Shown here piece after piece: positions 2,860 to 63,720 of a stretch of 64,000 bases of DNA. The stretch is from a bacterium (GTDB lineage: Bacteria; UBP18; UBA7526). The stretch is taken from assembly GCA_030619985.1 (NCBI GenBank), contig JAUXAI010000001.1:8708-72707 (forward strand), read 5' to 3'. Every line of letters starts with the position of its first letter. The first letter of the stretch is position 1. Position numbers and translations under genes: made by a program. The notes under the pieces are model-generated. The model did not search any database. It was given only the letters and a program-made list of their open reading frames with translations, and had not been told where the DNA came from.

Positions 2860-2864
2860 CAGAA

Positions 2865-2976
2865 TACAAGTTGACAAGGATACAAGAATACGAAAATAAC
2901 TAAACTTGTTAACTTGTCAACTTATTAACTTGTTAACTTATCAACTAATCAGCTAATCAACTTGTCAACTAATAAG
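2865..2976. repeat. Inverted oligomer-repeat hairpin (ACAAGTTAACAAGG family), empty form
   Basis: Forward acaagttgacaaggatacaag (2865-2891), then reverse complement cttgttaacttgtcaact... arrays (2905-2976). Confidence 0.8.
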
Positions 2977-4412: not shown

Positions 4413-4494
4413 TTACAGTGATTAAAAAATAAGATTACACAGATTAGTTATTAACGACGAAATCTGTGTAATCATTCTCAAAATCTGTGTAGTC
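4411..4494. repeat. Inverted 13-mer array hairpin (GATTACACAGATT x2 / AATCTGTGTAATC x2)
   Basis: gattacagtgatt, gattacacagatt ... aatctgtgtaatc, aatctgtgtagtc. The same 13-mer family recurs in frame inside the GT2 gene at 10048-10081. Confidence 0.8.
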
Positions 4495-4552
4495 AGAGCC
4501 CTCTGAAGATTTTTTCAGAGACCTCCGAAAAGAAGATTAGAAAGGATAGAGA

Positions 4553-5296
4553 TTGAAGGAGTTTAAAGGTAAGTTATCCATTCTGGTTCCAGCTCATAAT
4601 GAAGGACCCCATATCTATGGTAATATCCGTGAGATTCAGAGGGTCTTCGATGAAATTGGTTGCCGGTATGAACTCATTATTATTGATGACGGCAGTAAGG
4701 ATGAGACCCATGAGAATGCTCAGAAGGCGGCAAAGGGGTTCAAGAACATTATAGTAAAGAGGATGCGCCAGAACCGGGGCAAAGGAAGAGCCTTGAAGTA
4801 TGGCTTCCGCTTCGCTAAAGGAGATCTGGTGGCCTTTCTCGATGCCGATTTAGATCTCCATCCAGAGCAGATTCAAAACCTCTTCAGGATTATGAATAAA
4901 GAGGAGGTAGATGTAGTCATTGGTTCTAAAAGGCATCCAGAATCAAAATTGAAGTATCCTTGGCATAGGAAAATTATCTCCAATGTTTATTTTTTCTTAG
5001 TCAAGATTATATTCGGTTTACCTCTCAGAGATACCCAGACGGGCATTAAACTCTTTAAATATGAGGTACTTAAGAAAATATTTCCCAAGGTACTTATTAA
5101 AAGATATGCCTTTGACTTAGAATTATTGGTCAATGCCCACCATCTGGGATACAAGATTGCAGAAGCACCCATAACCTTAAATTACCAACGCTTTATGGGA
5201 CGTATTGGTTTAAGAGCCATTTATCACACTTGGTGGGATACCATGGCCATCTACTATCGTATGTATCTCCTGAAATACTACAATGGAAAGAAATAA
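4553..5296 (+). CDS. GT2 family glycosyltransferase
   Basis: LSILVPAHNEG...IIIDDGSKDET N-terminal GT-A motifs; a TTG start is possible. Confidence 0.7.
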   Translation: MKEFKGKLSILVPAHNEGPHIYGNIREIQRVFDEIGCRYELIIIDDGSKDETHENAQKAAKGFKNIIVKRMRQNRGKGRALKYGFRFAKGDLVAFLDADLDLHPEQIQNLFRIMNKEEVDVVIGSKRHPESKLKYPWHRKIISNVYFFLVKIIFGLPLRDTQTGIKLFKYEVLKKIFPKVLIKRYAFDLELLVNAHHLGYKIAEAPITLNYQRFMGRIGLRAIYHTWWDTMAIYYRMYLLKYYNGKK

Positions 5297-6254
5297 TTAT
5301 CCTAAGGTCTCTATTATTATTCCAGTAAAAGAATCTAATGAAAATCTGCAGGAATGCCTTGAACATTGTTTGGAACTCGATTATCCGGATTATGAAATTA
5401 TAGTATTACCAGATAAGATGGAGAGATTATCTTATTCTCAGGTGAAAGTCATCTCTACCGGGACTATTGGGCCTTCTGAAAAGAGGGATATTGGGATTAA
5501 GCATGCTCGAGGGGAGATTCTTGCTTTCTTAGATGATGATACCTTCTCCACCAAGGATTGGCTCAAAAAAGCAATGAAAAACTTTGAGGAGACAAACGTG
5601 GCTGCTGTAGGTGGTCCAGCCGTTACTCCAGAGAGTGACGGTCTAAGACAGCGAGCAAGCGGCTTGGTCTATTCCTCTCTTTTAGCCAGTGGAGGATTCA
5701 CTTACCGCTATATTCCCAAGGAGAAATGTTTGGTAGATGATTATCCTTCCTGTAATTTCCTAATTCGGAAATCGATTATGGAGAAAATAGGAGGCTTTGG
5801 TTCTAAATTCTGGCCGGGGGAAGATACCAAACTCTGCCTTCATATTACTAAAAATTTGGGCAAAAAGATTATCTATGATCCGGAAGTCTTAATCTACCAT
5901 CATCGTCGCCCCCTTTATAAAAAACACTTAAGGCAGGTAGCCAGTTATGCTCTTCATCGGGGTTATTTTGCTAAAAAGTTTCCTGAGACCTCATATAAGA
6001 TATCATACTTTATCCCTTCTCTCTTTGTCATTGGTCTATTCTTTGGTTGGTCATTAGGCTTTATCCATCCTTTCTTTTTCAAGATTTATCTCGGCGTAAT
6101 TTTGTTTTATCTTGTCTGCGTTCTACTTACTGGTTTTAAGCATAGAAATCCTAAACTGGCTTTTCTGGTATCCTCAGGTATTCTGGCTACTAACCTCTCC
6201 TATGGAATCTTCTTTCTTAAGGGTCTATTCTCCCGAAGGCTAAAAGAAGAATGA
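5283..6254 (+). CDS. GT2 family glycosyltransferase with C-terminal TM helices
   Basis: VSIIIPVKESNENL...EIIVLPD, a DDD motif, and C-terminal hydrophobic helices. Confidence 0.7.
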   Translation: MERNNYPKVSIIIPVKESNENLQECLEHCLELDYPDYEIIVLPDKMERLSYSQVKVISTGTIGPSEKRDIGIKHARGEILAFLDDDTFSTKDWLKKAMKNFEETNVAAVGGPAVTPESDGLRQRASGLVYSSLLASGGFTYRYIPKEKCLVDDYPSCNFLIRKSIMEKIGGFGSKFWPGEDTKLCLHITKNLGKKIIYDPEVLIYHHRRPLYKKHLRQVASYALHRGYFAKKFPETSYKISYFIPSLFVIGLFFGWSLGFIHPFFFKIYLGVILFYLVCVLLTGFKHRNPKLAFLVSSGILATNLSYGIFFLKGLFSRRLKEE

Positions 6255-6257
6255 TGA

Positions 6258-6308
6258 ACCCCGCACCTTTAGGCAAGGGCAGAAAATGAATACAAAAAGG
6301 TGCGGGGT
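6258..6308 (+). terminator. Conserved stem-loop element, copy 1 (ACCCCGCACCTTT ... AAAGGTGCGGGGT)
   Basis: 13-bp perfect stem with a loop containing agaaaatgaata. It is near-identical to the element at 58741-58806. Confidence 0.6.
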
Positions 6309-6315
6309 GAAGGTA

Positions 6316-7839
6316 ATGATTTCTTATCCTCCCTTGAAAGGACCAGGATGTCCTTTATTGAGTCAGAACCGTCAGTTTCAATGGTTCCATAATCCTACTT
6401 ATATCTATCCCGTAGTTCCGGCCTGGGCAGCGACGATGCTTAAGAACGCGGGTTATGAGGTCATCTGGAACGACTGTATTGCAGAAAATTGGGACTATAA
6501 AAAGTTTTTGGATTTTGTCCAAAAGGAAAAGCCCGACCTCATTGCCTTTGAAACCAAAACCCCAGTAATAAAGCAGCACTGGCAAATCATCAACGATTTG
6601 AAAAGACCAATCACCAATCACCGATCACCGATCACCGTATTATTCGGTGATCACGTTACTGCTCTACCTGAGGAATCTTTCCACAATTCTCAGGTCGATT
6701 ATGTTCTGACCGGTGGTGACTATGATTTCCTCCTCCTCAACCTCTGTAACTTTTTAGCTACCGATAACCCGATTACCCGATCACCTGATCACCTGATAAC
6801 CCGATTAGAACCCGGCATCTGGTATCGAGAAAGTGGCGAAATTAAGAATTCCGGTCTTTTCCGATTAAATCATGATTTAGATTCTTTACCTTTCATTGAT
6901 CGTGATTTAACTAAATGGAAACTCTATGCTTATGAAAATGGAAATTATAAATTAACCCCCGGGACCTATATTATGGCGGGAAGAGATTGTTGGTGGCGAA
7001 AGGATGGTGGCTGTACCTTTTGCTCCTGGACCGCCCTTTATCCTACCTGGAGGGTGAGGTCGGTAGAGAATGTCTTGGATGAGATGGGCGAGCTTATTGA
7101 GAGATATAAGATTCGGGAGATAATGGATGATACCGGTACTTTTCCGGCTGGGGAGTGGCTGCGAGAGTTCTGTCAGGGGATGATTAAAAGAGGTTATAAT
7201 GAAAGGATTAATTTCGATTGCAATCTGCGTTTTGGAGCATTAACCAGTAAAGATTATAAACTGATGGCCAAGGCGGGATTCAGATTCCTCCTTTATGGGC
7301 TTGAATCGGCGAGCCAAGAAACAATTAATAGATTGAATAAGGAGATAAAGATTGCCGCCATTGAGGAGGAATTAAGAGAGGTCAAAAGGGCAAATAGAGA
7401 GATTAAAGGACATCTCGAACCCCATGTCACCTGTATGGTTGGCTATCCCTGGGAGACAAAAGAGGAGGCAGAGAAGACGATTCAGATGACAAAGGATTTG
7501 TTCAGTAAAGGCTTGATAGACACCCTTCAGGCAACCATTATGATTCCCTACCCAGGAACGGCCCTCTTTAAGGAATGCAGGAAGAATGGATGGTTAAAGA
7601 ACGAGGATTGGGATGGGTTTGATATGAGTCAGCCGGTCATGAAGACTCCTCTGAAGGATGAGGAAGTAATGCGACTCACTCAGGGCATTTATAAATCCTT
7701 TATTACCCCACGCTTCTTATTTAGGAAAATAATATCTATCAGGAATATTGATGGCTTAAAGTTTTTCTGGCGTGCTGGAAAGGCAGTTTTGGGCCATCTC
7801 CGGGACTTTATGAAAAAACAATCTAAATTTTTGACATAG
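6316..7839 (+). CDS. B12-binding-domain radical SAM protein
   Basis: N-terminal Rossmann-like B12-binding region, then a Cys cluster (CWWRKDGGCTFCSW) and a TIM-barrel region. The six-frame ORF start at 6286 lies inside the hairpin, so ATG 6316 is more likely. The CDS carries two in-frame repeat insertions. Confidence 0.65.
   Translation: MISYPPLKGPGCPLLSQNRQFQWFHNPTYIYPVVPAWAATMLKNAGYEVIWNDCIAENWDYKKFLDFVQKEKPDLIAFETKTPVIKQHWQIINDLKRPITNHRSPITVLFGDHVTALPEESFHNSQVDYVLTGGDYDFLLLNLCNFLATDNPITRSPDHLITRLEPGIWYRESGEIKNSGLFRLNHDLDSLPFIDRDLTKWKLYAYENGNYKLTPGTYIMAGRDCWWRKDGGCTFCSWTALYPTWRVRSVENVLDEMGELIERYKIREIMDDTGTFPAGEWLREFCQGMIKRGYNERINFDCNLRFGALTSKDYKLMAKAGFRFLLYGLESASQETINRLNKEIKIAAIEEELREVKRANREIKGHLEPHVTCMVGYPWETKEEAEKTIQMTKDLFSKGLIDTLQATIMIPYPGTALFKECRKNGWLKNEDWDGFDMSQPVMKTPLKDEEVMRLTQGIYKSFITPRFLFRKIISIRNIDGLKFFWRAGKAVLGHLRDFMKKQSKFLT
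6608..6637. repeat. Heptamer array CAATCAC/CGATCAC x4 in frame inside the radical SAM CDS
   Basis: caatcaccaatcaccgatcaccgatcaccg encodes ITNHRSPITV. The same CGATCAC heptamer forms the array at 50912-50939. Confidence 0.8.
6761..6808. repeat. Octamer array CCGATNAC x6 in frame inside the radical SAM CDS
   Basis: ccgataac ccgattac ccgatcac ctgatcac ctgataac ccgattag. Confidence 0.8.
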
Positions 7840-49785: not shown

Positions 49786-50892
49786 GTGAAAATGCCAATA
49801 TTAGCTAAATTCAAACACCAGCGAACTGAAATCCTAATTTTCTCATTTTTTGGTATTCTGAGTCTAATGGCTACCCATCCTATGATCTTTAAAATGAAGA
49901 GTCATATCTACGGATATCCTGGTGATCCCTTAGGAAGTATATGGAGAATTTGGTGGTATAAATTTTCCTGGGTACATCATATTTCTTCTCGGTTTATTAT
50001 CATAATAGCCCATCCCTTTGGAGTTGATTTGAGTCAGGAAATAAGCAGTGCTCCTTTTAATTATTTAGTTTTCTTAATGGCTTTACTTAGTAATGAAATC
50101 TTTACTTATAATTTTATTCTTCTATGTGGGTTTCTACTATCAGCAATTACTATGTACTTCTTGGTTTACCACTTGACCAGAAATAGGGGAGCAAGTACTA
50201 TGGCTGGAGTGCTCTATGCCTTCTGTCCTTGGCACTTTGCTCATGCCGGGCAACATCTTTCCTTGGCTTCTATTCAATGGCTACCCCTTTACGGACTATT
50301 TCTCTTTAAACTGTTTAATAAAAGAACCTATAGAAATGCCTTTCTCTGTGCTCTGGGATTTTCCTTAGTCATTTTTACTGATTTTTCCTATGTCTTTCTA
50401 ATTTCGATTTTTACTACTGCCTTCATTGTATGGGGGTTATGGTTTACCTTGGGTCCCAACCGTAGATTCTACCCTACAAGTTCTAAGGCCTCACTTTTAA
50501 AGACAAGTATAGTAATTCTGGTAACTTTTCTCATTGCTTTGGCTATGATACTTCCTTTTACCTATTCTACTTTTAAGACCGCTCTTACGCTGCCTAAAGT
50601 AGAGTCCATGGCTATCTTAAGATACGCCAAGCCTTTTCGAGATCTTACTTCTAATTCTGCCCGGCCTTTGGGTTATCTTTTACCCTCTCAAGATAACCCA
50701 TTTTTTGGCAGGGTCACTAAAAAATTCATTAAAAGTCCCTTCTATGGTAGCCATCCTACGGAACATACCCTTTATCTGGGATGGGTGGGGATTGTGCTTT
50801 CGATTGTCGCGATAAGGGAATGGAGGAGAAAAAATAGGAAGCAGAGGATAGAGAAAAGAGGTCATCAGGTCATCAGGTCATCAGGTCATTAA
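49786..50892 (+). CDS. Polytopic membrane protein, N-terminal part of a gene apparently split by a tandem-repeat tract
   Basis: 368 aa, about 9 TM helices. It ends ...GHQVIRSSGH* inside the octamer array. Confidence 0.5.
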   Translation: MKMPILAKFKHQRTEILIFSFFGILSLMATHPMIFKMKSHIYGYPGDPLGSIWRIWWYKFSWVHHISSRFIIIIAHPFGVDLSQEISSAPFNYLVFLMALLSNEIFTYNFILLCGFLLSAITMYFLVYHLTRNRGASTMAGVLYAFCPWHFAHAGQHLSLASIQWLPLYGLFLFKLFNKRTYRNAFLCALGFSLVIFTDFSYVFLISIFTTAFIVWGLWFTLGPNRRFYPTSSKASLLKTSIVILVTFLIALAMILPFTYSTFKTALTLPKVESMAILRYAKPFRDLTSNSARPLGYLLPSQDNPFFGRVTKKFIKSPFYGSHPTEHTLYLGWVGIVLSIVAIREWRRKNRKQRIEKRGHQVIRSSGH

Positions 50893-50939
50893 GAGGAATA
50901 GACAGACAGACCGATCACCGATCACCGATCACCGATCAC
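50858..50939. repeat. Octamer array (AGGTCATC x4, 50858-50889) followed by heptamer array (CGATCAC x4, 50912-50939)
   Basis: Units that are not multiples of 3, lying at the junction of two overlapping reading frames. Confidence 0.85.
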
Positions 50940-50974
50940 GGAAAGGGATAAGCTTCTTTCTCTTTGCTGGGATT

Positions 50975-51658
50975 GTGGCTTTGCTATTTTCTCATTCCCC
51001 CTATACAGAAATTGGTCCTTTTCGAATACTCTTCCCTTCTTACTTTATGTATAGAATTGCTCCTATGTTTCGCTGTTATGCCCGATTTGGTATTGTTGTT
51101 ATGCTTTGTGTGAGTGCCTTAGCAGGGATTGGTCTTGCTTCAATTTTAGAGAAGATAAGGAGTAGTAAAAGAAGAAGAATTTTTCTTTCTGTAATTTTTT
51201 TACTTATTTTTATTGAATTTGCTCCTGCTCTGCCAGCCCCCATGGTTAATGCAGTTGATCCTCCTCCAGTCTATGAATGGCTCGCTAAACAAGAAGGCGA
51301 TTTTACTATTGCTGAGTATCCCTTAGAAGATGATCAGGAGTACTTCTTTTGGCAGAGGATCCACCAGAAGAGATTAGTCAATGGTGCTCAACCAGGAACC
51401 TACGCTGATGAGGTAAGGAAAGAGATCATTGATATCTTGAAGCCAGAAACTCCGGGTATTCTAAAATATTTAGGAACGAGGTATATCATTTTTCATCCTG
51501 ATAAGTATCTGAAGAGTGAGGATGTCCCAGTAATTGGCGAGGTTCCAGATGTAAGCAAGCAAAGGGGGCTAAAACTCATTAAGACTTTTGAAGATGCGGG
51601 AGTCTATGAGGTGGTAGTGGAGCCGATTAAGCCCAAGACGCGAATTAACGCGAACTGA
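50975..51658 (+). CDS. C-terminal part of the split membrane protein (its frame is open from 50852)
   Basis: The frame is open upstream through both repeat arrays to 50852, overlapping the first ORF by 41 nt. It continues with TM helices and then a soluble domain. Confidence 0.45.
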   Translation: MALLFSHSPYTEIGPFRILFPSYFMYRIAPMFRCYARFGIVVMLCVSALAGIGLASILEKIRSSKRRRIFLSVIFLLIFIEFAPALPAPMVNAVDPPPVYEWLAKQEGDFTIAEYPLEDDQEYFFWQRIHQKRLVNGAQPGTYADEVRKEIIDILKPETPGILKYLGTRYIIFHPDKYLKSEDVPVIGEVPDVSKQRGLKLIKTFEDAGVYEVVVEPIKPKTRINAN

Positions 51659-51860
51659 AAAGCGAGGACGCAAGATAATCGGCACGCGAATTATCGCGAA
51701 TTAAAAGCAGTTACCAAGCTATCAAGTGATTGAGCTATCGAATTGGATGGTTGGATGGTTAGCCTGTTAACCAGTTTGCTGGTTAGCCAGTTTGCCAGTT
51801 GAATTTGGGGGAGAGCAGAGAAAAGAGCTACCAAGCTATCGAGCTATCAAGTAAGGAGTA
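51644..51860. repeat. 45-nt direct-repeat copy 1 (51644-51690) plus a complex inverted oligomer-repeat region
   Basis: cgcgaactgaaaagcgaggacgcaagataatcggcacgcgaatt recurs at 52862-52905. It is followed by accaagctatcaag/gagctatcga and ccagtttg arrays. Confidence 0.75.
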
Positions 51861-51938: not shown

Positions 51939-52772
51939 ATGAGAAGGACATTAGGTTTTGTTTTAATCTTGGGTGTTTTAGTGGTAAGTGGATGCGTGAG
52001 AAGGGAACTTCTTGTTCTCCCTGAGGCACCAGAGGTAGGGGTGTTAAAGCCGGTTACCAGGCCAGGGACAGCGGCCTTCAGGGGAGGGGAAAAACTAACC
52101 TTCTTAGCTAAGTTCCGGTTTATTCCTGCTGGAGAGGTGACTATGGAAGTAAGGGAGATGAGATATAGGGGCCATGAGGTCTACAGTCCTTTAATAACTA
52201 TGAAGGCGGCTAAGTTATTTTCTTTTTTCTGTCCAGCAGAGGTAAATATCAGGTCCTATCTCGATGCCCGTACCTTAGATAGTCTACGTTATGAGGAGCA
52301 TACCATAATGGGTCGCCATACCTATGAACGCTTGACGGTCTATGACCAGAGGAATCGATTGGCGACGTATGATGCGCCAGTCTATGATAGAATGGGCAAG
52401 ACAATCAGGATTTATAAGAAGAAGGTAAGGATTCCACCCCATACCCAGGATATGTTATCTGCCTTCTATTATATTCGAACCCAGGAATTAAAAGAGGGAA
52501 AGATTCTAACCATCAATGCCAATGAGCGACACAAGAATTATAGAGTGAAGATAAAGGTCTTGAGGAAAGAGAAGGTTACTGTTCCAGCAGGAACCTTCCT
52601 CACCTGGGTGATAGAGCCGATTTCCATACAGAGATTGGATAAAGAAAAAGAAGGGGAAAAAGGAACAGGTCTTATCTATCTCAGCGCAGATGAGAGGAAG
52701 CTACCAGTCTTAATGAAAGCCAAGACAAAATTAGGCTCGGTTACTGTTCAACTAATAGACGTTAAACTTTAA
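51939..52772 (+). CDS. DUF3108-like lipoprotein
   Basis: Signal peptide with lipobox (VVSGC); beta-rich body consistent with DUF3108 family members. Confidence 0.45.
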   Translation: MRRTLGFVLILGVLVVSGCVRRELLVLPEAPEVGVLKPVTRPGTAAFRGGEKLTFLAKFRFIPAGEVTMEVREMRYRGHEVYSPLITMKAAKLFSFFCPAEVNIRSYLDARTLDSLRYEEHTIMGRHTYERLTVYDQRNRLATYDAPVYDRMGKTIRIYKKKVRIPPHTQDMLSAFYYIRTQELKEGKILTINANERHKNYRVKIKVLRKEKVTVPAGTFLTWVIEPISIQRLDKEKEGEKGTGLIYLSADERKLPVLMKAKTKLGSVTVQLIDVKL

Positions 52773-52774
52773 CG

Positions 52775-52915
52775 CGAATAATCGCGAACTGCAAAGCAAA
52801 GAACGAAACAAAGTAAACAGGACGCGAATTAACGCGAATAAAAGAGGGACGCGAATAGACGCGAACTGAAAAGCGAGGACGCAAGATAATCGGGACGCGA
52901 ATCAACGCGAATGAA
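52775..52915. repeat. ACGCGAA-type oligomer arrays including 45-nt direct-repeat copy 2
   Basis: ttaacgcgaataatcgcgaactg...gacgcgaattaacgcgaat...cgcgaactgaaaagcgaggacgcaagataatcgggacgcgaatc. Confidence 0.8.
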
Positions 52916-53306
52916 AACAGAAACAAAAATATTATATAAGGAGTTAGCTTACCAAATAGTAGGAGCTTTTTACGAAGTATATAATACTCTGGGGCCAGGT
53001 TTTAAAGAGTCCATTTACCATAACGCTTTAGCCATTGAATTTACTTTACGGAAAATATCCTTTGAAACTAATAAGAGACTCACCATCAAGTATAAAAAGC
53101 AAAAGGTTGGAATTTATGAACCAGACTTCGTTATAGATAATAAGATTCTTGTTGAAATCAAAGCTGTTCCCAGGATGCCCAGAGTTTACGAAAAGCAGTT
53201 ATATTACTATCTGAAGGGTACAGAATATAAATTGGGTTACTTAGTAAATTTTGGAGCTGATAAATTAGAAATCAAGCGTAGAATCTACGAAAGGATTCGC
53301 GTTTGA
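52911..53306 (+). CDS. GxxExxY family protein
   Basis: AYQIVGAFYEVYNTLGPGFKESIYHNAL..., the family-defining G-x2-E-x2-Y N-terminus; 131 aa. Confidence 0.75.
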   Translation: MKTETKILYKELAYQIVGAFYEVYNTLGPGFKESIYHNALAIEFTLRKISFETNKRLTIKYKKQKVGIYEPDFVIDNKILVEIKAVPRMPRVYEKQLYYYLKGTEYKLGYLVNFGADKLEIKRRIYERIRV

Positions 53307-53318
53307 AGGAGGTTTGAG

Positions 53319-53747
53319 ATGGCTTTTGTATTACTCTTTGCTTCTATATTTTTGGCAGTGGTGGGACAGTTATTGCTGAAGAAGGGGATGTGGACGGTGG
53401 GGATTGTCTATTTCCATTTCTCCCATCTCTGGTCTACCTTCCTTAAAGTCTTTTCTAACTGGTATGTTATCTTTGGATTCGTCTTTTTTGTTTTAAGTGC
53501 CCTTCTGTGGTTGGCGGTCTTATCAAGATTGGATATTAGCAAGGCCTATCCCATGGTGGCCGCGGGCTATATTCTGGTTCTTTTAGCTTCCAGGTGGGGA
53601 ATAATTGTGACTAGAGAACCAGTCTCTCCCATCAGATGGATAGGGGCCCTGGTGATTTGTTTCGGTGTTTACCTTATTTCGCGCACTGATTTCGCGCAGT
53701 TGATTAAGGACTTATCAACTTTAATCTTCTGGAGGAAGCATGGTTAA
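53319..53747 (+). CDS. Small EamA/SMR-like membrane protein (ArnE/ArnF-like undecaprenyl-phosphate-sugar flippase subunit family)
   Basis: 142 aa, 4 TM helices, GQLLLKKG motif near the N-terminus. Confidence 0.5.
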   Translation: MAFVLLFASIFLAVVGQLLLKKGMWTVGIVYFHFSHLWSTFLKVFSNWYVIFGFVFFVLSALLWLAVLSRLDISKAYPMVAAGYILVLLASRWGIIVTREPVSPIRWIGALVICFGVYLISRTDFAQLIKDLSTLIFWRKHG

Positions 53748-54819
53748 GGCGGTCATTATTGCTGGGGGGAGGGGAGAGAGGTTTTGGCCTAAGAGTAGGA
53801 TTAGAACACCGAAGCAACTCCTTCCCATAGCCTCTAAAAAGAGTATGATCTATGAGACGGTGAAGAGGATAAGCCCTTTGGTGACATCAAAGGATATTCT
53901 GATTATTGCCAGAAGAGGTTTGGGGGCAAGAATCAAGAAAGATCTTCCTAAGATCCCCACTAAGAATATTATCTCCGAGCCCTTTGGGCGGGATACTGCA
54001 GCAGCAGTCGGCTTAGGAGCAATATTAGCGGAGAAGAAAGACCCAGATAGCGTTATGGTTGTCTTACCCGCAGATCATGTAATTGGTGAGCCGAAGAAGT
54101 TTCTAAAAACTTTAAGAGTGGCCATCAAGGCTGCCCGAGATACAGATAATTTAGTGACTATGGGAATCAAACCTAACAGGCCAGAGACGGGGTATGGGTA
54201 TATAGAAATTGGTTCGCCAGTTCGCCAGTTCGCCAGTTCGCCAGTTTATGAGGTGAAGAGGTTTGCAGAAAAGCCGGATAGGAAAAAAGCATTAAAGTTT
54301 ATGAAGAGCGGGAGGTATCTCTGGAATAGTGGAATGTTTATCTGGAGAACCTCTGTTATCCTGAAAGCGATGAGAAAACATATGCCCCAACTATATAGAG
54401 GCCTTTTGGAGATTCAGGAGGCCTTGGGTACTTCTCAAGAAAAGAAAGCGATTGAAAAGGTCTACAAAAAGTTGGACAAAATATCCATAGATTATGGTAT
54501 AATGGAGAAGGCAAAAAATACATTGGTGGTGAAGGCAGATTATCTCTGGGATGATGTGGGGAACTGGCAGGCCCTGGAAAGAATCTCAGTTAAAGATAAA
54601 GAGAGGAATATTACCAAGGGAGAAGTCTCTTCTTTAGATACGAGAGATTCCATTATTCTCTGTGACAAAGGAATGGTAGGAACAATCGGTATAAAAGATT
54701 TAATCATCATCTCAACAGAAGATGCTACTTTAATCTGCCCTAAAGATAGGGCCCAGGAAGTAAAGGAACTGGTCCACAAGCTTGGTAAGAATAAGAAATT
54801 AAAGAAATACATTAAGTAA
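53740..54819 (+). CDS. manC: Mannose-1-phosphate guanylyltransferase (nucleotidyltransferase domain only)
   Basis: AVIIAGGRGERFWPKSR...PKQLLPI...GYGYIE; 359 aa. It carries an in-frame octamer repeat insertion. Confidence 0.75.
   Translation: MVKAVIIAGGRGERFWPKSRIRTPKQLLPIASKKSMIYETVKRISPLVTSKDILIIARRGLGARIKKDLPKIPTKNIISEPFGRDTAAAVGLGAILAEKKDPDSVMVVLPADHVIGEPKKFLKTLRVAIKAARDTDNLVTMGIKPNRPETGYGYIEIGSPVRQFASSPVYEVKRFAEKPDRKKALKFMKSGRYLWNSGMFIWRTSVILKAMRKHMPQLYRGLLEIQEALGTSQEKKAIEKVYKKLDKISIDYGIMEKAKNTLVVKADYLWDDVGNWQALERISVKDKERNITKGEVSSLDTRDSIILCDKGMVGTIGIKDLIIISTEDATLICPKDRAQEVKELVHKLGKNKKLKKYIK
54213..54246. repeat. Octamer array CGCCAGTT x4 in frame inside manC
   Basis: It encodes SPVRQFASSPV. 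A related CCAGTTTG array lies intergenically at 51766-51800. Confidence 0.8.
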
Positions 54820-54910
54820 GGTTCACGGTTAACGGTTTACGGTTAACCGTAAAAAAACGGTAAACGGTAAACAGCGACAAACAAGGTGAGGAGCGGGTAA
54901 ACTGTAAACT
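54820..54910. repeat. Inverted heptamer-array hairpin (CGGTTAA/CGGTTTA ... CGGTAAA)
   Basis: cacggttaacggtttacggttaaccgtaaaaaaacggtaaacggtaaacag; it contains the perfect palindrome acggttaaccgt. Confidence 0.8.
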
Positions 54911-54932: not shown

Positions 54933-56345
54933 ATGGAGAGAATAAAGTTTGGTACTGATGGCTGGAGAGGAGTGATCTCAAAGGATTTTACCTTTGAGAA
55001 TGTCAAGATCGTCTCCCAGGCCATGGCCGATTATCTAAAGAAAGAAAAGATTGGGGAGAGGGAGATCATCATAGGATATGATGCTCGTTTTCTCTCTAAG
55101 GAGTATGCCCAGCTTGTGGCCTCTGTCTTAGCCGGGAATGGAATAAGGGCTATCTTGAGCGACAGAATCCAGCCCGTTCCTTGTGTCTGTTTCGCCATAA
55201 AGGATAGGGAGGCTGCTGGGGGGATAATGATTACTGCCAGCCATAACCCCTTTCAATATAATGGAATAAAGTTCAAAGGAGAGTATGCGGGAAGCGCAGA
55301 TGATACAACAACTAAGAAGATCGAGAATTTCTTGTATAAGAATAAACCGAAAGAAATAGATTTTGAGGCGGAAGAAAAGAAAGAACTCATCCGGACAATA
55401 GATCTTACTCCGCCCTATCTCCAGTTTCTAAAATCCTTCGTCAATTTGGAATTAATAAAAGAAGCGTCGCTTAAAATAATTGTTGATTCCATGTATGGTG
55501 CAGGAAAGGATTATACTGCCCAGGTCTTAAAAGAAGGGAAGTGTCAGGTCATCACTATTCGGGGCGAGGAGAACCCCTCTTTCAGGGGAGTGAACCCCGA
55601 GCCCATTGCTCAGAACTTAGGCGCCTTAATAGATAAGATAAAGGAAGAGAAGGCAGATTTAGGACTGGCCACAGATGGGGATGGGGATCGGTTAGGAGTC
55701 ATGGATAGTGAAGGCAACTTTGTCAATCCCCATCAGGTTCTTTCATTACTTACCCTTCATTTGATTGAGAGCAGGGGATGGTCGGGAGGAATAGTGAAGA
55801 CCATATCTACCACCTCCTTGTTGAATAAAATAGCAGAAAAGTATAAGAGAAAAATCTATAAGACCCCGGTAGGCTTTAAGTATATCTGTGAGTTGATGCT
55901 AAAGAAGGATATCCTGATTGGAGGAGAAGAATCAGGAGGGATCGGAGTCAAGAATCATGTTCCGGATAGGGATGGTCTATTATCTGGTCTACTTCTTCTT
56001 GAGATGTTAGCCTTGAAGAAGAAACCCTTATCCCAGATTCAGGAGGAGATGAGAAAAGAGTTTGGCACCTATCTTTATCAAAGGATTGATAGTGAGTACC
56101 CTCTGGACAAAAGAGACATCTTGATTTCTACCTTAAAGAAAAATCCACCAAAAGAATTGGCGGATATTGAGGTAAGAAAAATAGATGCTTCAGATGGAAT
56201 AAAGTTTATTCTGGAGGATAATAGCTGGCTCTTGTTTCGCACCTCGGGGACAGAACCCATCATTAGAATCTATGCTGAATCAGACGAAGAAGGAAAGTTA
56301 GAAAAGATTATGGAAGCAGGAAAGGAGTTGGCCTTCTCTATCTAA
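54933..56345 (+). CDS. manB: Phosphomannomutase/phosphoglucomutase
   Basis: Active-site TASHNP, the GEESGG sugar-binding loop, 470 aa. Confidence 0.85.
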   Translation: MERIKFGTDGWRGVISKDFTFENVKIVSQAMADYLKKEKIGEREIIIGYDARFLSKEYAQLVASVLAGNGIRAILSDRIQPVPCVCFAIKDREAAGGIMITASHNPFQYNGIKFKGEYAGSADDTTTKKIENFLYKNKPKEIDFEAEEKKELIRTIDLTPPYLQFLKSFVNLELIKEASLKIIVDSMYGAGKDYTAQVLKEGKCQVITIRGEENPSFRGVNPEPIAQNLGALIDKIKEEKADLGLATDGDGDRLGVMDSEGNFVNPHQVLSLLTLHLIESRGWSGGIVKTISTTSLLNKIAEKYKRKIYKTPVGFKYICELMLKKDILIGGEESGGIGVKNHVPDRDGLLSGLLLLEMLALKKKPLSQIQEEMRKEFGTYLYQRIDSEYPLDKRDILISTLKKNPPKELADIEVRKIDASDGIKFILEDNSWLLFRTSGTEPIIRIYAESDEEGKLEKIMEAGKELAFSI

Positions 56346-56475
56346 AGTTAACAAGGATACAAGTTAACAAGAAACTTATCAACTTATTTCTGAGTGGTAA
56401 CGAAGAAACAAGGTTCTGCGAAGCAGGTTCTTATTAACTTGTCAACTTGTCAACTAATCAACTTGTCAACTTTTT
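56346..56475. repeat. Inverted oligomer-repeat hairpin (ACAAGTTAACAAGG family), empty form
   Basis: agttaacaaggatacaagttaacaag ... cttgtcaacttgtcaactaatcaacttgtcaac. Confidence 0.8.
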
Positions 56476-58817: not shown

Positions 58818-58928
58818 AAATTCTGATTATCTTCTTTTCTTCTTTCCCTTCCTTGCCTTTTTCTTCTTTCTCCTTACAACCTTCTTTCTTTTCACAACCT
58901 TCTTTTTCCTCTTCGCCTTCTTCTTTCT
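58818..58928 (-). CDS. Candidate 36-aa hyper-basic peptide (MAKRKKKAKRKKKVVKRKKVVRRKKKKARKGKKKRR)
   Basis: A minus-strand GTG start preceded by AAGGAGAGGAGGG 6 nt upstream. It lies in a 150-nt polypyrimidine (plus-strand) tract, and its purine-rich composition could be coincidental. Confidence 0.25.
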
Positions 58929-59054
58929 TTTCGCCACTTTTTCCCTCCTCTCCTTAAATTTAGTTTAATAATATCACACTAAATCTCCATTTGTCAAGCC
59001 TTTTTTTGATTTTTATTGAATTTATTGATAGAATGGAAAAGGAAAGAGAATGAG

Positions 59055-59630
59055 ATGACCAAGATCATCCTGGTGCGCCATGGGGAGACGGCCTGGACTC
59101 CAGTAAATAGGATTCAAGGTTGGCTGGATATAGAGTTAAATGAGCGAGGGCTAAGACAGGCAAAAAGAATTGCAAGAGAATTAAAGAGAAAGAAGATAGA
59201 CGCCATCTATTCTAGTGAACTCTCTCGGGCTTATGAGACAGCAAAGATTATTGCCAAACCACATAAATTAAGAGTAAAGAAGGATATTAATCTCAATGAG
59301 CTTAACCAGGGAAAGTGGCAAGGGCTTCTGGTAAAAGAGGCCAGAAGAAAGTATAAGGAACTTTACCGAAGATGGGAAGAAGAACCCTTAAGCGTCAGGC
59401 CTCCTGGAGGGGAGAGCATCCTGGACCTTTACGAAAGGGCAATCCATATTTTAAGAGAGATTACCAAGAAATATCCCAAAGGGAAGGTAGTCATCGTGGG
59501 ACATAAGGTGATAAATACGGTATTAAAATGCTATTTGTTGGGAATAAATCTCTCTAATGTCTGGAAACTACTGCCTAAGGAAGCAAGCTGGGAGGAAATC
59601 AAAATTCCCCAATCAAGAGTCAGAAAATGA
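59055..59630 (+). CDS. Histidine phosphatase (phosphoglycerate-mutase superfamily), candidate glucosyl-3-phosphoglycerate phosphatase
   Basis: LVRHGET with catalytic His, about 190 aa, adjacent to gpgS. Mycobacterial GpgP belongs to this superfamily. ATG 59055 is preferred; the six-frame ORF starts at 59016. Confidence 0.55.
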   Translation: MTKIILVRHGETAWTPVNRIQGWLDIELNERGLRQAKRIARELKRKKIDAIYSSELSRAYETAKIIAKPHKLRVKKDINLNELNQGKWQGLLVKEARRKYKELYRRWEEEPLSVRPPGGESILDLYERAIHILREITKKYPKGKVVIVGHKVINTVLKCYLLGINLSNVWKLLPKEASWEEIKIPQSRVRK

Positions 59631-59672
59631 GTTAACAAGTATACAAGTTAACAAGGATACAAGTTGACAAGG
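59631..59672. repeat. Forward oligomer array (GTTAACAAG / ATACAAGTTAACAAGG) left of a four-helix-bundle gene
   Basis: gttaacaagtatacaagttaacaaggatacaagttgacaagg. Confidence 0.8.
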
Positions 59673-59682
59673 AAGGTGGAAG

Positions 59683-60057
59683 ATGGAAAGAGGTTTTGAA
59701 GGTTTAAAGGTTTGGCAATTGGGAAGGAAATTCCGCAAAAAGATTTATGAGATAAGTAGAAAGTTCCCAAAGGAAGAGATATATTGCCTAGTTCAGCAAA
59801 TTCGTAAAGCAGCAATATCCATAACTGCCAATATCACAGAAGGTCATGGTAGGTATCATTATCAGGAAAATATTCAGTTTTGTCGGGTTTCAAGAGGCTC
59901 GATAAATGAAGTCTTAGATCATCTATATACTGCTATAGACGAAAAATATATTGTTGAAAAAGAGTTCCAGCAATTATACTCTCAGGGCAGAGAAGTAGAA
60001 AAAGTGCTCAACGGTTACATCGGTTACCTTCACAAAAGACTCAGCGAGAAAAGTTAA
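59683..60057 (+). CDS. Four-helix-bundle protein (TIGR02436; '23S rRNA intervening-sequence protein' family)
   Basis: 124 aa ...LKVWQLGRKFRKKIYEISRKFPKEE...ITANITEGHGRYHYQENIQFCRVSRGSINEVLDHL... Confidence 0.8.
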   Translation: MERGFEGLKVWQLGRKFRKKIYEISRKFPKEEIYCLVQQIRKAAISITANITEGHGRYHYQENIQFCRVSRGSINEVLDHLYTAIDEKYIVEKEFQQLYSQGREVEKVLNGYIGYLHKRLSEKS

Positions 60058-60094
60058 ACTTGTCAACTAATCAACTTGTTAACTTATCAACTAT
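60056..60094. repeat. Reverse-complement oligomer array right of the four-helix-bundle gene
   Basis: aacttgtcaactaatcaacttgttaacttatcaactatc, the reverse complement of the 59631-59672 family. Confidence 0.8.
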
Positions 60095-60110
60095 CTGAAA
60101 GGAGTTTATC

Positions 60111-61331
60111 ATGTCTAAACCAAGAATTGCTATCGTTCATTATTCCTCTCCTCCAGTAATCGGAGGGGTGGAGTTCATCTTGGAGGCTCATGCCAGAGAG
60201 ATGCTCAAGCATGGCTATAAGGTGAAGGTTGTTGCAGGGAGAGGGGAGAAATTTCATAAGAAGATCCCGATTGTTATTATTCCCGAGGCGGATTCTCTCT
60301 CAAAGACGAATAAGAGAATAGATGCGGAACTTGAGAAGAATCTTGTGAGTGCTAAATTTCATCAATTAACAGATAGAATCTACGGGAAACTAACTCGAGA
60401 GTTTAAAAATGTCGATCTTGTCATCATCCATAATGTCCTGACCATGCACTTCAACCTCCCCCTTACTGCTGCTTTAGAGAGATATATTAGAGAACATAAG
60501 AAGAAAAAGTACATCGCCTGGTGCCACGATGCCACCTTCAAGGACCCGGTCTATAAGAAGAAGGCCAAGAATAAATACCCCTGGAATGTGATCTCCAAGC
60601 CCATTCCAAAAGTAAGGTATGTTGCCATCTCTTGTGAGCGCCAGAAGCAGCTCTCTCACCTCTTCCGAGTCAATCCCAAGAAGATAACCGTGGTTCCTGA
60701 CGGAATCGATCATAAAAGCTTCTTAGATTTAAATGGGGATGCCCTGGAAGTCTTCAAGAGGTTTAATCTCTTTAATCAGGATCTGGTTATGCTTCTGCCC
60801 ACCAGGATTGTGAAAAGAAAAAATCTGGAACTGGCAATAAAGATCACTAAGGAATTGAATAAGATACTCAAGGCTGTTTTAATTATTACTGGGCCTCCTG
60901 ATCCCCATAATATCGACTCTATGAGGTATTATCGCTCTCTGAAAGACTTAAGGAATAAATCCCGGATGAAGAGGAAGGTCATCTTTCTCTATGAGGAGGG
61001 AATAAAGGTAGGATATTCTATGCTGAGGAGCCTCTATCTATTATGTGATATGCTCCTATTTCCCAGTGCCCAGGAAGGCTTCGGCATCCCCCTATTGGAA
61101 TCTGGATTGGTTAACCTTCCCATCGCTTGTGCCAACATCCCTCCCTTGAAGGAAGTGGGAGAGAAAGACGTTCACTATCTTGACTTAAAGAAGAACCCCA
61201 GAGAACTTGCCTCAGGGATAATTAAGTATTACCAAAGACAGCCCACTATCCCTATGTTCAAGAAGGTATTGAGGAACTATACCTGGGAATCCATCTTCAC
61301 GCAAAAGATAGAACCATTGTTAAAGGGGTGA
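60111..61331 (+). CDS. GT4 family glycosyltransferase (GT-B)
   Basis: N-terminal IAIVHYSSPPVIGGVEFIL; C-terminal ...FPSAQEGFGIPLLESGLVNLPIAC (the E-x7-E region). Confidence 0.65.
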   Translation: MSKPRIAIVHYSSPPVIGGVEFILEAHAREMLKHGYKVKVVAGRGEKFHKKIPIVIIPEADSLSKTNKRIDAELEKNLVSAKFHQLTDRIYGKLTREFKNVDLVIIHNVLTMHFNLPLTAALERYIREHKKKKYIAWCHDATFKDPVYKKKAKNKYPWNVISKPIPKVRYVAISCERQKQLSHLFRVNPKKITVVPDGIDHKSFLDLNGDALEVFKRFNLFNQDLVMLLPTRIVKRKNLELAIKITKELNKILKAVLIITGPPDPHNIDSMRYYRSLKDLRNKSRMKRKVIFLYEEGIKVGYSMLRSLYLLCDMLLFPSAQEGFGIPLLESGLVNLPIACANIPPLKEVGEKDVHYLDLKKNPRELASGIIKYYQRQPTIPMFKKVLRNYTWESIFTQKIEPLLKG

Positions 61332-61362
61332 CAGGGGTGGCAAGGGTGACAGGGGTAACAGG
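61322..61362. repeat. Forward nonamer-like array (GTGACAGGG/GTGGCAAGG/GTAACAGGG) left of the second four-helix-bundle gene
   Basis: ggggtgacaggggtggcaagggtgacaggggtaacaggg. Confidence 0.8.
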
Positions 61363-61363
61363 G

Positions 61364-61732
61364 ATGAAAAGTAAAAGAGAGCCCGGCTATAAGAGATTAA
61401 TTGTCTGGCAGAATACCTATAAACTGCGCAAATTAATCTATAAGATAACCGCTCACTTCCCAAGAAGTGAAATGCGACGGGTCAGTCATATGAGAGATAG
61501 TGCCCGCTCAGCAAAGCAGAATATCCAAGAGGGTTATAAGCGTGCCTCTCGTGGAATATATATTCACTTTTTAACCATTTCTCAGGGCTCTTTAGGAGAA
61601 TTGAAGGGCGATGTAGAAGATTCTTTTGAAGATGGATTGATGAGTAAGGAAGAATATGAAGAAGTAGATGCTTTAATCTGCAAAACCGATTATTTATTTA
61701 CTCGCCTGATCAATTCATTAAGGAAGAAATAA
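61364..61732 (+). CDS. Four-helix-bundle protein (TIGR02436 family)
   Basis: MKSKREPGYKRLIVWQNTYKLRKLIYKITAHFPRSE...AKQNIQEGYKRASRGIYIHFLTISQGSLGEL...; ATG 61364 is preferred over the six-frame ORF start at 61328 inside the repeat. Confidence 0.8.
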   Translation: MKSKREPGYKRLIVWQNTYKLRKLIYKITAHFPRSEMRRVSHMRDSARSAKQNIQEGYKRASRGIYIHFLTISQGSLGELKGDVEDSFEDGLMSKEEYEEVDALICKTDYLFTRLINSLRKK

Positions 61733-61785
61733 ACCCTTGTACCCCTTATATCCCTTGTTCCCCCCGTAACCCCTGTGGAGTACTA
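61733..61785. repeat. Reverse-complement array right of the second four-helix-bundle gene
   Basis: aaacccttgtaccccttatatcccttgttccccccgtaacccctgtgg, the reverse complement of the ACAGGGG/ACAAGGG units. Confidence 0.75.
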
Positions 61786-61787
61786 GA

Positions 61788-63563
61788 ATGACTACCGAGA
61801 GGATTAGAAATTTCTCTATTATTGCCCATATCGACCATGGAAAGAGCACCTTGGCAGATAGACTATTGGAGTATACCAAGACCCTTCCTTCCCGAAAGAT
61901 GAGGGAGCAGGTATTGGATGAGATGGAACTTGAGAGGGAGAGGGGGATTACCATAAAGGCCAAAGCGGTGAGACTGAGGTACAAAGATTATATATTAAAT
62001 CTCATAGATACTCCGGGCCATGTGGACTTCTCCTATGAGGTCTCCAGGTCTCTTGCTGCCTGTGAGGGAGTCTTATTGATCATCGATGCCAGCCAGGGGG
62101 TTCAGGCCCAGACCTTAGCCAATGCCTACTTAGCAAGGGAAGCCAACCTCGCCATCATCCCCATTATAAATAAGATAGACCTTCCCAATGCCCGGCCAGA
62201 AGAGACAGAGAAACAGATAAAAGATGTCCTGGGATTAGAGGACCCCATCTTTACCAGTGCCAAGAAGGGAATGGGAACAGAGGATGTCCTGGAAGCAATA
62301 GTTGAGAGGATCCCCCCACCAAAAGGGGAGATCAATAAGCCCCTTCAGGCCTTGATCTTCGACTCTATCTATAATCCCTATCAGGGGGTAGTGGTCTATA
62401 TCCGGGTTGTTCAGGGTTCCATTAAACCAAGAGATAGGATTAGGCTTATGGGAAGGGGCAGGGATTTTGAAGTGAATGAAGTGGGGATCTTCTCTCCAGA
62501 GATGAGAAAGGTGGAGGGGCTCTCTCCAGGTGAGGTGGGCTACCTAATGGCGAATATAAAGAACCTTCAAGATGCCAAGGTGGGGGATACTATTACTGGT
62601 GCCCAAAATCCGGCCCAGAAGTCTCTTCCCGGATATAAGGAGGTGAAGCCCTTTGTCTTCGCCAGCCTCTATCCTGTAAGAAGCGAGGATTTTGGATCAC
62701 TGAAGGAGGCTTTGGAGAAGCTGAAACTGAATGACGCTTCCTTTAGTTATATAGAGGAAAGCTCCCCAGCCTTGGGCCCTGGTTTCAGATGCGGATTCTT
62801 AGGCCTCTTACATATGGAGATCGTCCAAGAGAGATTGGAGAGGGAGTATGACCTGGATCTGATAACTACGGCACCCAGCGTGGTCTACAGAGTAATCACC
62901 AAAGAGGGTGAAATTAAAAGGGTAGAGAACCCTTCTAGACTCCCTTCTCCCGCTGAGATTAAAGAGATTCAGGAGCCCTATATTAAGGCGATCATCATTA
63001 CTCCCGCCGAATACTTAGGACCCATTATGCAGTTAGTTCAGGGAAGAAGGGGAGTATATAGAGATACCAGGTATCTGGCCCCCAATACCGCCTCTTTGAC
63101 CTATGAATTCCCCCTATCTGAGGTGATCCTCGACTTCTATGATAGGCTGAAGTCTGTCTCCCGAGGTTATGCCTCCTTTGACTATGAGCATATCGGTTAT
63201 CGAAAGACGGATTCGGTAAAGGTCGATGTCCTCTTAAATAATGAGAAGGTGGAAGGATTATCCTTCATTACCCATAAGGAAAAGGCCTATCATAGGGCAA
63301 GCGAGTTGGTAGCAAGATTAAAGGAGGTCATTCCTCAGCACCTCTTTCCTGTTGCCATACAGGGGGCGATAGGGAAGAAAATCATCGCCCGGGAGACAGT
63401 AAAAGCTTTGAGAAAGGATGTCACCGCTCCCTTATACGGAGGGGATGTCACCCGGAAGAGGAAGCTTTTGGAGAAGCAGAAGAGGGGTAAGAAGAGAATG
63501 AAGAGAATTGGAAAAGTCTCTCTTCCCCAAGAAGCTTTCTTAAGCATTCTGAAGGTGGATTAG
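61788..63563 (+). CDS. lepA: Elongation factor 4 (translational GTPase LepA)
   Basis: [17 protein letters not shown]1 motif, [12 protein letters not shown]; 591 aa with LepA-specific C-terminal domain. Confidence 0.9.
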
Positions 63564-63564
63564 G

Positions 63565-63720
63565 AAATTAGGTGGACTAGGATATTAGGTGGATTAGATT
63601 TAGTATACTGGTTAAATTAGGATACTAGTTGGATTACACCCCTATTCCAACTAATTCACCAATTTCCTAATATACTAAACCAATCCAACTATTCCACCAA
63701 ATCCAACTATTTCACTAAAA
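63565..63720. repeat. Long inverted oligomer-repeat hairpin (ATTAGGTGGA arrays / reverse complement)
   Basis: Forward ggaaattaggtggactaggatattaggtggattag...; reverse ...ctaatatactaaaccaatccaactattccaccaaatccaac. Confidence 0.75.

Follow-up and report, generated by a model that had tools for sequence, protein, structure and literature searches.

In Leptospira, Coxiella and Brucella, genes of the S23p protein family lie in intervening sequences (IVSs) of the 23S rRNA, inserted in helix 9, 25 or 45 and enclosed by complementary termini, which pair in a long stem. In the Coxiella 23S IVS, tandem heptamers (GACAGAT, two to three copies, their number varying among strains) lie just upstream of the S23p open reading frame (ORF), the RNase III site is located at the first of them, and S23p forms homopentamers (PMC4990558). 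Four-helix-bundle (4HB) genes of this kind have also been noticed wedged between cas genes (PMC3936711). The S23p family is functionally uncharacterised, and the origin and movement of rRNA intervening sequences have been an open question for 30 years. Here we describe two S23p-family genes in a 64-kb window (a 64,000-nt stretch of contig JAUXAI010000001.1, from a bacterium of the UBP18 lineage, whose coordinates are used throughout), each enclosed, as in the rRNA IVSs, by complementary termini, and each in an insert that, likewise, replaces a former short loop or spacer. In contrast to the rRNA IVSs, these cassettes lie between the coding genes of an operon, their arms consist wholly of tandem 8- or 9-mers and their movement from junction to junction is documented.

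The 59.0-63.6 kb region of the window is a run of co-directional genes encoding GpgS, a His_Phos phosphatase, a family 4 glycosyltransferase (GT4) and LepA, in which two small ORFs occupy two of the spacers. Its features, in order, are:

59016-59630, plus strand: His_Phos phosphatase gene, stop codon at 59628-59630.
59620-59673, plus strand: 5' arm of cassette 1, with stem base TCAGA (59620-59624) and then an array (59630-59673).
59683-60057, plus strand: gene for 4HB1, a 124-aa four-helix-bundle (S23p, Avd-like) protein recognised by profile matches, isoelectric point (pI) 9.3.
60057-60098, plus strand: 3' arm of cassette 1, the reverse-complement array and then stem base TCTGA.
60111-61331, plus strand: GT4 glycosyltransferase gene, ATG at 60111, stop codon at 61329-61331.
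61319-61367, plus strand: 5' arm of cassette 2, a G-rich array of period 9 with about 5 units (ACAGGGGTG).
61364-61732, plus strand: gene for 4HB2, a 122-aa four-helix-bundle protein recognised by profile matches, pI 9.7.
61733-61785, plus strand: 3' arm of cassette 2, a C-rich reverse-complement array of period 9 (array 61734-61776), paired up to 61774.
61788-63563, plus strand: LepA gene, ATG at 61788.

Both spacers are wholly filled by the cassettes, with the upstream stop codon at or inside the first repeat unit and the downstream Shine-Dalgarno (SD) sequence a few bases past the last. In cassette 1, the 5' array starts at the His_Phos stop codon and has a period of 8 and about 5 units (ACAAGTAT, ACAAGTTA, ACAAGGAT and ACAAGTTG); an SD-like GGAAGGTGG stands immediately 5' of the 4HB1 gene. 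The 3' array (60057-60093) also has a period of 8, with about 4 units (CTTGTCAA, CTAATCAA, CTTGTTAA and CTTATCAA), and the arm that contains it terminates 2 nt ahead of the GT4 SD. The 5' arm of cassette 2 includes the GT4 stop codon and abuts the ATG of 4HB2, and its 3' arm is followed directly by GGAG and the LepA ATG. The best inverted pair of cassette 1 joins 59638-59671 with 60059-60092 (34 nt, 76% complementarity), and the arms of cassette 2 match between 61324-61363 and 61735-61774 (40 nt, 70%). When folded as RNA, the segment 59620-60100 paired 59620-59673 with 60057-60098 (minimum free energy (MFE) -105 kcal/mol, z = -2.3), and in the segment 61315-61790 the stem closed from 61324 to 61774 (MFE -147.7 kcal/mol, z = -4.85, with none of 100 shuffles as good). 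As in an IVS, the 4HB genes are therefore bordered by complementary termini, which pair into a long stem, and the predicted stems, about 35-50 bp with mismatches, are long enough for RNase III. The repeat motifs are enriched 20-fold over shuffled sequence: the window contains 17 occurrences of the cassette-1 motif (0.83 expected) and six of the cassette-2 motif (0.32 expected). A scan for promoters and terminators yielded nothing convincing that belonged to the cassettes, and no T-tract terminators follow the arms.

Both proteins matched the family profiles well above the cut-offs. Against PF05635 (cut-off 33.8 bits), the matches were full length, with E = 2.8e-34 and 117.9 bits for 4HB1 and E = 1.9e-20 and 73.5 bits for 4HB2; against TIGR02436 (cut-off 24 bits), the values were 6.7e-32 and 110 bits, and 2.1e-18 and 66.5 bits, respectively. 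4HB1 also matched PDB entry 2GSC (XCC0516, a pentameric structure) at 1e-10. The kinship between the two proteins is distant (phmmer E of about 1e-12), and both carry the S-x3-N-x2-E-G core motif (RKAAISITANITEG in 4HB1 and RDSARSAKQNIQEG in 4HB2), with an R-to-S spacing one residue longer than in the published family consensus GxxRxxxSxxxNxxE (Lin 2006; Zhang & Ye 2013). Weak matches to Avd proteins of diversity-generating retroelements (DGRs) were seen as well (bAvd PF22296, 5e-5; NF033474, 3e-4; and the PHROG family 'Avd protein of DGR'). The defence models of PADLOC gave marginal matches only (Cas11b, 0.0034; Cas4, 0.0058), and an Rfam scan of the window returned no hits and no rRNA. A mechanically chosen GTG start for 4HB2, at 61328, would translate through the 5' array. 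The annotated N terminus of many database homologues lies 10-90 residues too far upstream, gene callers having placed the start within the 5' array; for the 4HB family, N-terminal extensions of this origin are probably a systematic error of annotation.

These results bear out most of a preliminary description of the window, which had proposed that both genes encode 23S rRNA IVS proteins, that each is bracketed by an array and its reverse complement, and that folding of the two segments would close a stem; in both cassettes the arms are indeed reverse complements that pair in the RNA folds. It had also assigned the repeats to one family. The arrays themselves are real, but they do not form a single family, as cassette 1 is built of octamers and cassette 2 of nonamers, and the pairing of their arms is imperfect (70-76%).

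We then scanned metagenomes with 4HB1 and compared the cassettes with related loci (117 in all; labels of the type L001 denote these loci or contigs). On six contigs (L099-L103 and L107), 4HB1-type genes of 90-94% protein identity occupy another junction, the one upstream of ManC. The 3' arm of these copies is almost identical to that of cassette 1 (TAAACTTGTCAACTAATCAACTTGTTAACTTATYAACTRT), the homology ending at ...AACTRT, and their 5' arm belongs to the cassette-1 family and differs in unit number. Similarly, a 94%-identical 4HB2-type gene with the same 5' arm stands behind an unrelated gene in L114, and 4HB2 relatives at 70-76% identity lie in other operons with an arm of CAGGG core and period 10. 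The occurrence of a gene together with its arms at unrelated junctions is direct comparative evidence of mobility, and at this level of sequence comparison the cassettes have moved.

The orthologous operons that we compared (GT4 85-90% identical) presented the His_Phos-GT4 and GT4-LepA junctions in a variety of states. In L005 both junctions are empty, the genes overlapping or lying 14 nt apart; in L004 and L007 the same junction is occupied by 4HB genes other than those of the window, and their arms differ too; and L006 has hairpins only, one of them nested within arms of the cassette-1 family. Cassette 2 is missing from L104 and L105, sister strains at 96-99% nucleotide identity, and a strain with a 99%-identical 4HB1 has 18 nt in place of the 467 nt found in the window. 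Thus, the filled and empty versions that the preliminary description had expected were encountered, along with hairpin-only ones, at the same orthologous junctions, and its suggestion of a mobile family is upheld by the presence of each cassette, with arms, at an unrelated junction (protein identity 90-94%). Taken together, we consider it likely that a mobile cassette family exists.

Several of these loci show peculiarities of their own. Relative to L104 (1830-3637), L106 carries cassette 1 inverted with respect to His_Phos, with a crossover inside the arms and a 27-nt overlap, which may be genuine in this sister sample or reflect a fold-back assembly chimera (coverage is 2.5x). At the GT4-LepA junction of L007 (4759-4803), a one-sided purine-rich array (AAGTAAG/AAAGTAA, four copies) seems to have arisen by expansion of the stop-codon sequence at that site, whose counterpart is single-copy in L005 and L104, and this may be an array being born. 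The 4HB copy of L004 at the His_Phos-GT4 junction (5501-5893) contains an in-frame stop codon and is a probable pseudogene, and the arms of this cassette hold the small nested palindromes GCCTGCCTGCCGGCAGGCAGG and CCCGACCTTATCGGGAC.

To score the architecture across loci, we measured local complementarity between the 110 nt upstream and the 110 nt downstream of each gene. An inverted-repeat score of at least 24 was reached by 70% of 76 4HB loci compared with 4% of 230 control ORFs from the same loci (Mann-Whitney p = 1e-21). Flank scores of 26 or more were reached by 59 ORFs, namely 49 4HB genes, 2 GxxExxY genes and 8 host genes situated between two hairpins of one family. The unit sequences are highly diverse among 4HB loci; both arms share one period (7, 8 or 9 nt) in 27 of 33 clear cases (11.6 expected), and the period is the same in 77% of protein pairs of at least 60% identity versus about 28% of pairs below 60%. 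The 4HB genes are co-oriented with their neighbours in 83-89% of cases, with median gaps of 70 and 54 nt. The closest operon relatives are unclassified metagenome-assembled genomes (MAGs), NPL-UPA2 and Nitrospirota. A 71%-identity homologue, located between the genes of two hydrogenase/complex-I subunits, shares this arrangement, its arrays being built of GTTGATAR octamers, and on finished plasmids of cultured cyanobacteria (Nostoc punctiforme, N. edaphicum and Calothrix brevissima), 4HB genes lie inside inverted heptamer arrays (GGAGTCA, GGGAGTA and GGGTGTA). The cassette is found in many bacterial phyla. Conserved 16S/23S motifs were matched only by chance across the 117 loci, revealing no rRNA-borne copy, and no relatives were found on viral contigs. 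The earlier idea of a gene in a long stem-loop outside rRNA thus holds both here, where the flanks are coding genes, and in about 70% of the homologue loci.

In L001, several junctions of one hydrogenase operon (579-711, 1643-1820 and 4665-5046) appear, from their flank scores, to carry one array family, which is why the host genes at 711-1643 and 3448-4665 score as flanked by inverted repeats.

A consistent handedness emerged when the arms were compared. In 42 of 48 informative cassettes, G exceeds C in the 5' arm and the reverse holds in the 3' arm (p = 1e-7), C making up 5.7% of 5' arms and G 5.7% of 3' arms; this handedness is unaltered by flipping the whole element. As stop codons contain no C, the C-poor 5' arm is rich in them (0.133 per nt, versus 0.067 in 3' arms), and it closes all three frames in 24 of 50 cases. 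Conversely, start codons and SD sequences need G, so that the G-poor 3' arm is poor in starts (0.016 per nt, versus 0.057 in 5' arms). We read this as allowing a cassette to sit in an operon either way round without fusion to, or disturbance of, host translation.

Hairpins that enclose no gene, and remnants of cassettes, are also present elsewhere in the window:

2861-2976, plus strand: gene-less hairpin of the cassette-1 arm family, which folds (z = -2.8).
50855-50944, plus strand: gene-less paired arrays, AGGTCATC (four copies) and ACCGATC (four copies).
53676-53727, plus strand: probable excision or decay scar, …GTTGATTAAGG joined to ACTTATCAACT…, at a junction where relatives hold a 4HB1-type cassette.
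54820-54872, plus strand: gene-less heptamer hairpin, GGTTNAC (four copies) and CGGTAAA.
56345-56475, plus strand: gene-less hairpin of the cassette-1 arm family, between a PGM-like gene and an MGS-like glycosyltransferase family 2 (GT2) gene, which folds (z = -3.05).
63553-63719, plus strand: gene-less hairpin located 3' of LepA and composed of 9-nt arrays, AGGTGGATT… and …AATCCAACTATTCCACC.

The two gene-less hairpins of the cassette-1 arm family had already been pointed out in the preliminary description, and both are real and fold. The one at 2861-2976 is asymmetric, with about 2.5 units on the left and about 8.5 on the right, and looks like a deletion derivative, since it retains TAAACTTGT, comprising the 4HB stop codon and the start of the arm. 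The scar at 53676-53727, at the window's ManC junction, is now translated as a C-terminal extension of an ArnE/F-like ORF.

A second cargo class was recognised in the following element:

52773-53312, plus strand: GxxExxY cassette, with a 131-aa GxxExxY gene (TIGR04256, PDDEXK_3; PD-(D/E)XK-like) at 52911-53306.

Arrays of the ACGCGAAT type lie 5' of this gene (52773-52910), and a single inverse unit is left on its 3' side (GGATTCGCGTTTGAAGG, 53293-53309). A GxxExxY cassette that keeps both arms, with ACGCGAAT/ATTCGCGT arrays, is present in L099 (3052-3580), and the gene recurs with the same arms in another organism, between rimP and its neighbour (L115, 910-1424). In L099, a small membrane-protein gene separates two consecutive junctions, one holding a GxxExxY cassette and the other a 4HB cassette. 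Cassettes of this kind thus have GxxExxY genes as a second class of cargo. Around the window's copy, ACGCGAAT-type units make up a block of about 73 nt that is present three times (51640-51700 and 52772-52917), once at the end of gene 50975-51658 and twice in tandem before the GxxExxY gene, and further small arrays (GAGCTATC and GTTAGCCA) lie in 51700-51850.

These observations can be joined in one model, in which the arrays and their genes form a selfish family of hairpin-enclosed cassettes, a non-rRNA counterpart of the ORF-bearing rRNA intervening sequences; this is the reading we favour, with moderate confidence. A cassette consists of a 5' arm almost free of C (about 3-8 units of 7-10 nt), a ribosome-binding site (RBS) with the gene for a small basic protein, and a reverse-complement 3' arm almost free of G, its cargo usually being four-helix-bundle (S23p/Avd-like) and sometimes GxxExxY (PD-(D/E)XK-like). 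Cassettes sit in short spacers between co-directional operon genes, and their hairpins nest in one another. A cassette would have no promoter of its own and be transcribed by read-through, and its arms may pair in the polycistronic RNA as a 35-50-bp stem from which the cassette is looped out, by analogy with the ORF-bearing 23S rRNA IVSs, which loop out likewise and are excised by RNase III. This analogy is strengthened by the tandem heptamers upstream of the Coxiella S23p ORF and by the RNase III cut at the first of them. The stop-rich 5' arm would end upstream translation in several frames, and the 3' arm, poor in G and hence in starts and SD-like sequence, would spare the RBS of the next gene; insertion would therefore be tolerated in either orientation. 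The basic protein, probably pentameric, is predicted to bind its own repeat arrays, as DNA or RNA, and thereby to aid maintenance or spread, and spread itself may use recombination between cognate hairpins acting as 'landing pads' or an unknown trans-acting enzyme. The complete package (looping-out or RNase III processing, translational insulation and recognition of the arms by the protein) we regard as somewhat probable, the protein's role being its weakest link.

Several observations weigh against this model. The arms are 70-80% complementary and often unequal in length, and their mismatches, mostly transversions, show no excess of G:U (82, versus 95 A:C; p = 0.37), so that the stem is not visibly maintained by compensatory selection at the RNA level. 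Cassette 2 has no target-site duplication, 18 nt having been replaced by 467 nt, and the comparison of empty and filled states at other junctions was ambiguous and gave no consistent duplication. No transposase, integrase or reverse transcriptase (RT) lies beside the cassettes in the 64-kb window, where a 4HB or GxxExxY gene is the sole cassette ORF. About 30% of the homologues have no detectable inverted repeat, some of them having a one-sided array, and, because it was by the 4HB gene that the loci were retrieved, the specificity of this gene as cargo is overstated. A mutational or mechanistic bias, and not adaptation, could underlie the handedness, and in Coxiella S23p is apparently not made (PMC4990558). 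A 'ATCTGAAA'-like direct repeat at the His_Phos-GT4 junction, considered as a target-site duplication, was rejected, as it belongs to the inverted repeat (the TCAGA/TCTGA pair in the fold).

Other explanations account for part of this evidence. The arrays might be insertion scars, in which a templated or slipping polymerase or an RT, with an Avd-like 4HB cofactor, added one short unit many times over to each of the two 3' ends at a double-strand break; sealing would leave a G-rich array followed by a C-rich one, with or without captured DNA, and hairpin centres would break again and so give rise to nesting. Hairpins do nest, unit number does differ among copies, the one-sided array of L007 seems to have grown from local sequence, and the 4HB proteins are homologous to Avd, the RT cofactor of DGRs (PMC10053308). 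The strict handedness (42 of 48) is also what extension of both 3' ends predicts, although selection on translation accounts for it equally well. However, the arms travelled with their gene between sites almost unchanged and so were not remade at each insertion, an RT is adjacent in no locus examined, and inspection of the arrays disclosed no adenine-specific (DGR-like) pattern in unit variation; we therefore hold this origin to be improbable. A closer tie to DGRs, in which the cassettes would be degenerate DGRs or orphan Avd genes derived from them, draws on the weak matches to bAvd (PF22296, 5e-5), NF033474 (3e-4) and the PHROG Avd family, but these scores fall far under the curated cut-offs (24 versus 40 bits and 21 versus 80 bits). 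Beside neither gene is there an RT or a pair of template and variable repeats (TR/VR), the neighbours being His_Phos, GT4 and LepA, and the repeats, being arranged in short tandem arrays, do not constitute such a pair. Lacking both RT and TR/VR pair, the DGR remnant was rejected as highly improbable.

It is also conceivable that nothing here is mobile, and that the arrays are regulatory or structural elements of the host (STRR-like hairpins serving as terminators, attenuators, mRNA stabilisers or sites bound by a global regulator, where STRR stands for short tandemly repeated repetitive sequence) with the 4HB protein as a host regulator. Such a role would suit the basic proteins and the many gene-less arrays at operon junctions in the window, and the paired repeats of Geobacter metallireducens were read as global-regulator or IHF sites (PMC2700814). 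We nevertheless judge it quite unlikely: the same gene and arms recur at unrelated junctions, sister strains at 96-99% nucleotide identity are without cassette 2, relatives 85-90% identical carry three unrelated 4HB/arm combinations at one junction, no T-tract terminators follow the arms, and the pseudogenised copy and the scar point to turnover. Chance self-complementarity of low-complexity intergenic DNA in an AT-rich genome, or MAG chimeras formed at repeats, could be suspected from the L106 'inversion', which comes from a contig of 2.5x coverage and is a possible fold-back chimera, and from the moderate z-scores of individual window elements (-2.3; 3.8-5.3). The motif enrichment (17 versus 0.83 and 6 versus 0.32 expected), the contrast with control genes (70% versus 4%) and the recurrence of the architecture in independent assemblies and samples and on finished Nostoc and Calothrix plasmids leave this explanation effectively refuted, with a negligible chance of being right.

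Returning to the hairpin-enclosed cassette model, it can be carried further, to a proposal that we put forward tentatively and consider rather unlikely, namely that the S23p proteins and, in parallel, the nuclease-like GxxExxY proteins are dedicated factors of a class of transposase-less mobile elements that home into hairpin loops. The pentameric protein would recognise its own arms, and the arrays may grow by templated synthesis at 3' ends, which would explain why a G-rich array is followed by a C-rich one. Such a class would account together for three phenomena: STRR arrays in cyanobacteria, paired 'regulator sites' in Geobacter and ORF-bearing IVSs of rRNA.

Apart from the cassettes, in-frame tandem arrays of 7- or 8-mers lie within conserved enzyme genes of the window (270-304, 883-919, 6602-6639, 6761-6801 and 54209-54249). 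Their hosts are an RmlD-like gene, gene 6286-7839 and ManC; all are one-sided, without an inverted partner, and the ManC array is shared with the L099 orthologue. Upstream of the His_Phos gene, a conserved minus-strand ORF (58827-58937) encodes an extremely basic product of 36 aa (VAKRKKKAKRKKKVVKRKKVVRRKKKKARKGKKKRR), preceded by a near-consensus promoter (58997-58968) and an SD. This ORF, also present in L004, L005, L007 and L104, is the sole minus-strand gene seen, versus 55 plus-strand ORFs of at least 90 aa.

Among systems other than the rRNA IVSs, the heptamer arrays around the 4HB genes of the Nostoc and Calothrix plasmids are the STRR repeats of heterocystous cyanobacteria. STRRs are tandem, dispersed 7-nt units that often form inverted pairs and extend hairpins, as in helix P12 of RNase P RNA, and the organisation seen here is the same; the present arrays differ in their periods of 8 and 9, in their non-cyanobacterial MAG lineage and in serving as the arms of a gene cassette. 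To our knowledge, STRRs are repeats of unknown function to which no cargo gene has been assigned. In Geobacter metallireducens, inverted pairs of three to five tandem 7-9-mers lie between operon genes with variable spacing, as here (Aklujkar 2009). The part of that report available to us gives the units as GTTGCTYN, TCTCCGTS and MTYCTGA, at junctions such as nifD-nifK and proB-proA, and reads them as IHF/HU or regulator sites and as insertion points of IS110/IS481, with no 4HB cargo reported there (PMC2700814).

Miniature inverted-repeat transposable elements (MITEs) and REP doublets forming hairpins (REPINs, with their RAYT proteins) are likewise short intergenic inverted-repeat hairpins in many copies, gene-less and gene-bearing, and nested. 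The cassettes differ from them in having no transposase or RAYT and no clear target-site duplication in the 64-kb window, in an arm sequence that changes from cassette to cassette, and in a sole ORF that encodes either a helical bundle of 120 aa or a small protein of the PD-(D/E)XK-like type. The Avd protein of DGRs, a basic pentamer that binds nucleic acid, shares a homologous four-helix-bundle fold, whereas the cassettes have neither RT nor TR/VR pair and score under the Avd cut-offs. Integron cassettes, too, are promoterless single-gene units in the direction of host transcription with imperfect inverted repeats, building up at hot spots (compare L099), but the present cassettes have no single site of the attC type, no integrase and no attI platform, and their arms flank the gene symmetrically.

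We found no paper in the literature in which 4HB genes are presented as being carried, in general, by mobile hairpins with inverted tandem arrays as arms. What is kept here is the S23p intervening-sequence architecture, and what is missing is its defining location inside a 23S (or 16S) rRNA gene. The finding bears on operon evolution and on gene calling, as ORFs are often extended into arrays, and the genetically tractable Nostoc strains that share the architecture offer testable systems. The STRR arrays of cyanobacteria are as unexplained as the S23p family, and a connection between the two is provided by the window and its relatives, in which the 4HB gene is normally the cargo of a tandem-array hairpin that moves between junctions; seen in this way, the rRNA IVS resembles a special case among such landing sites.

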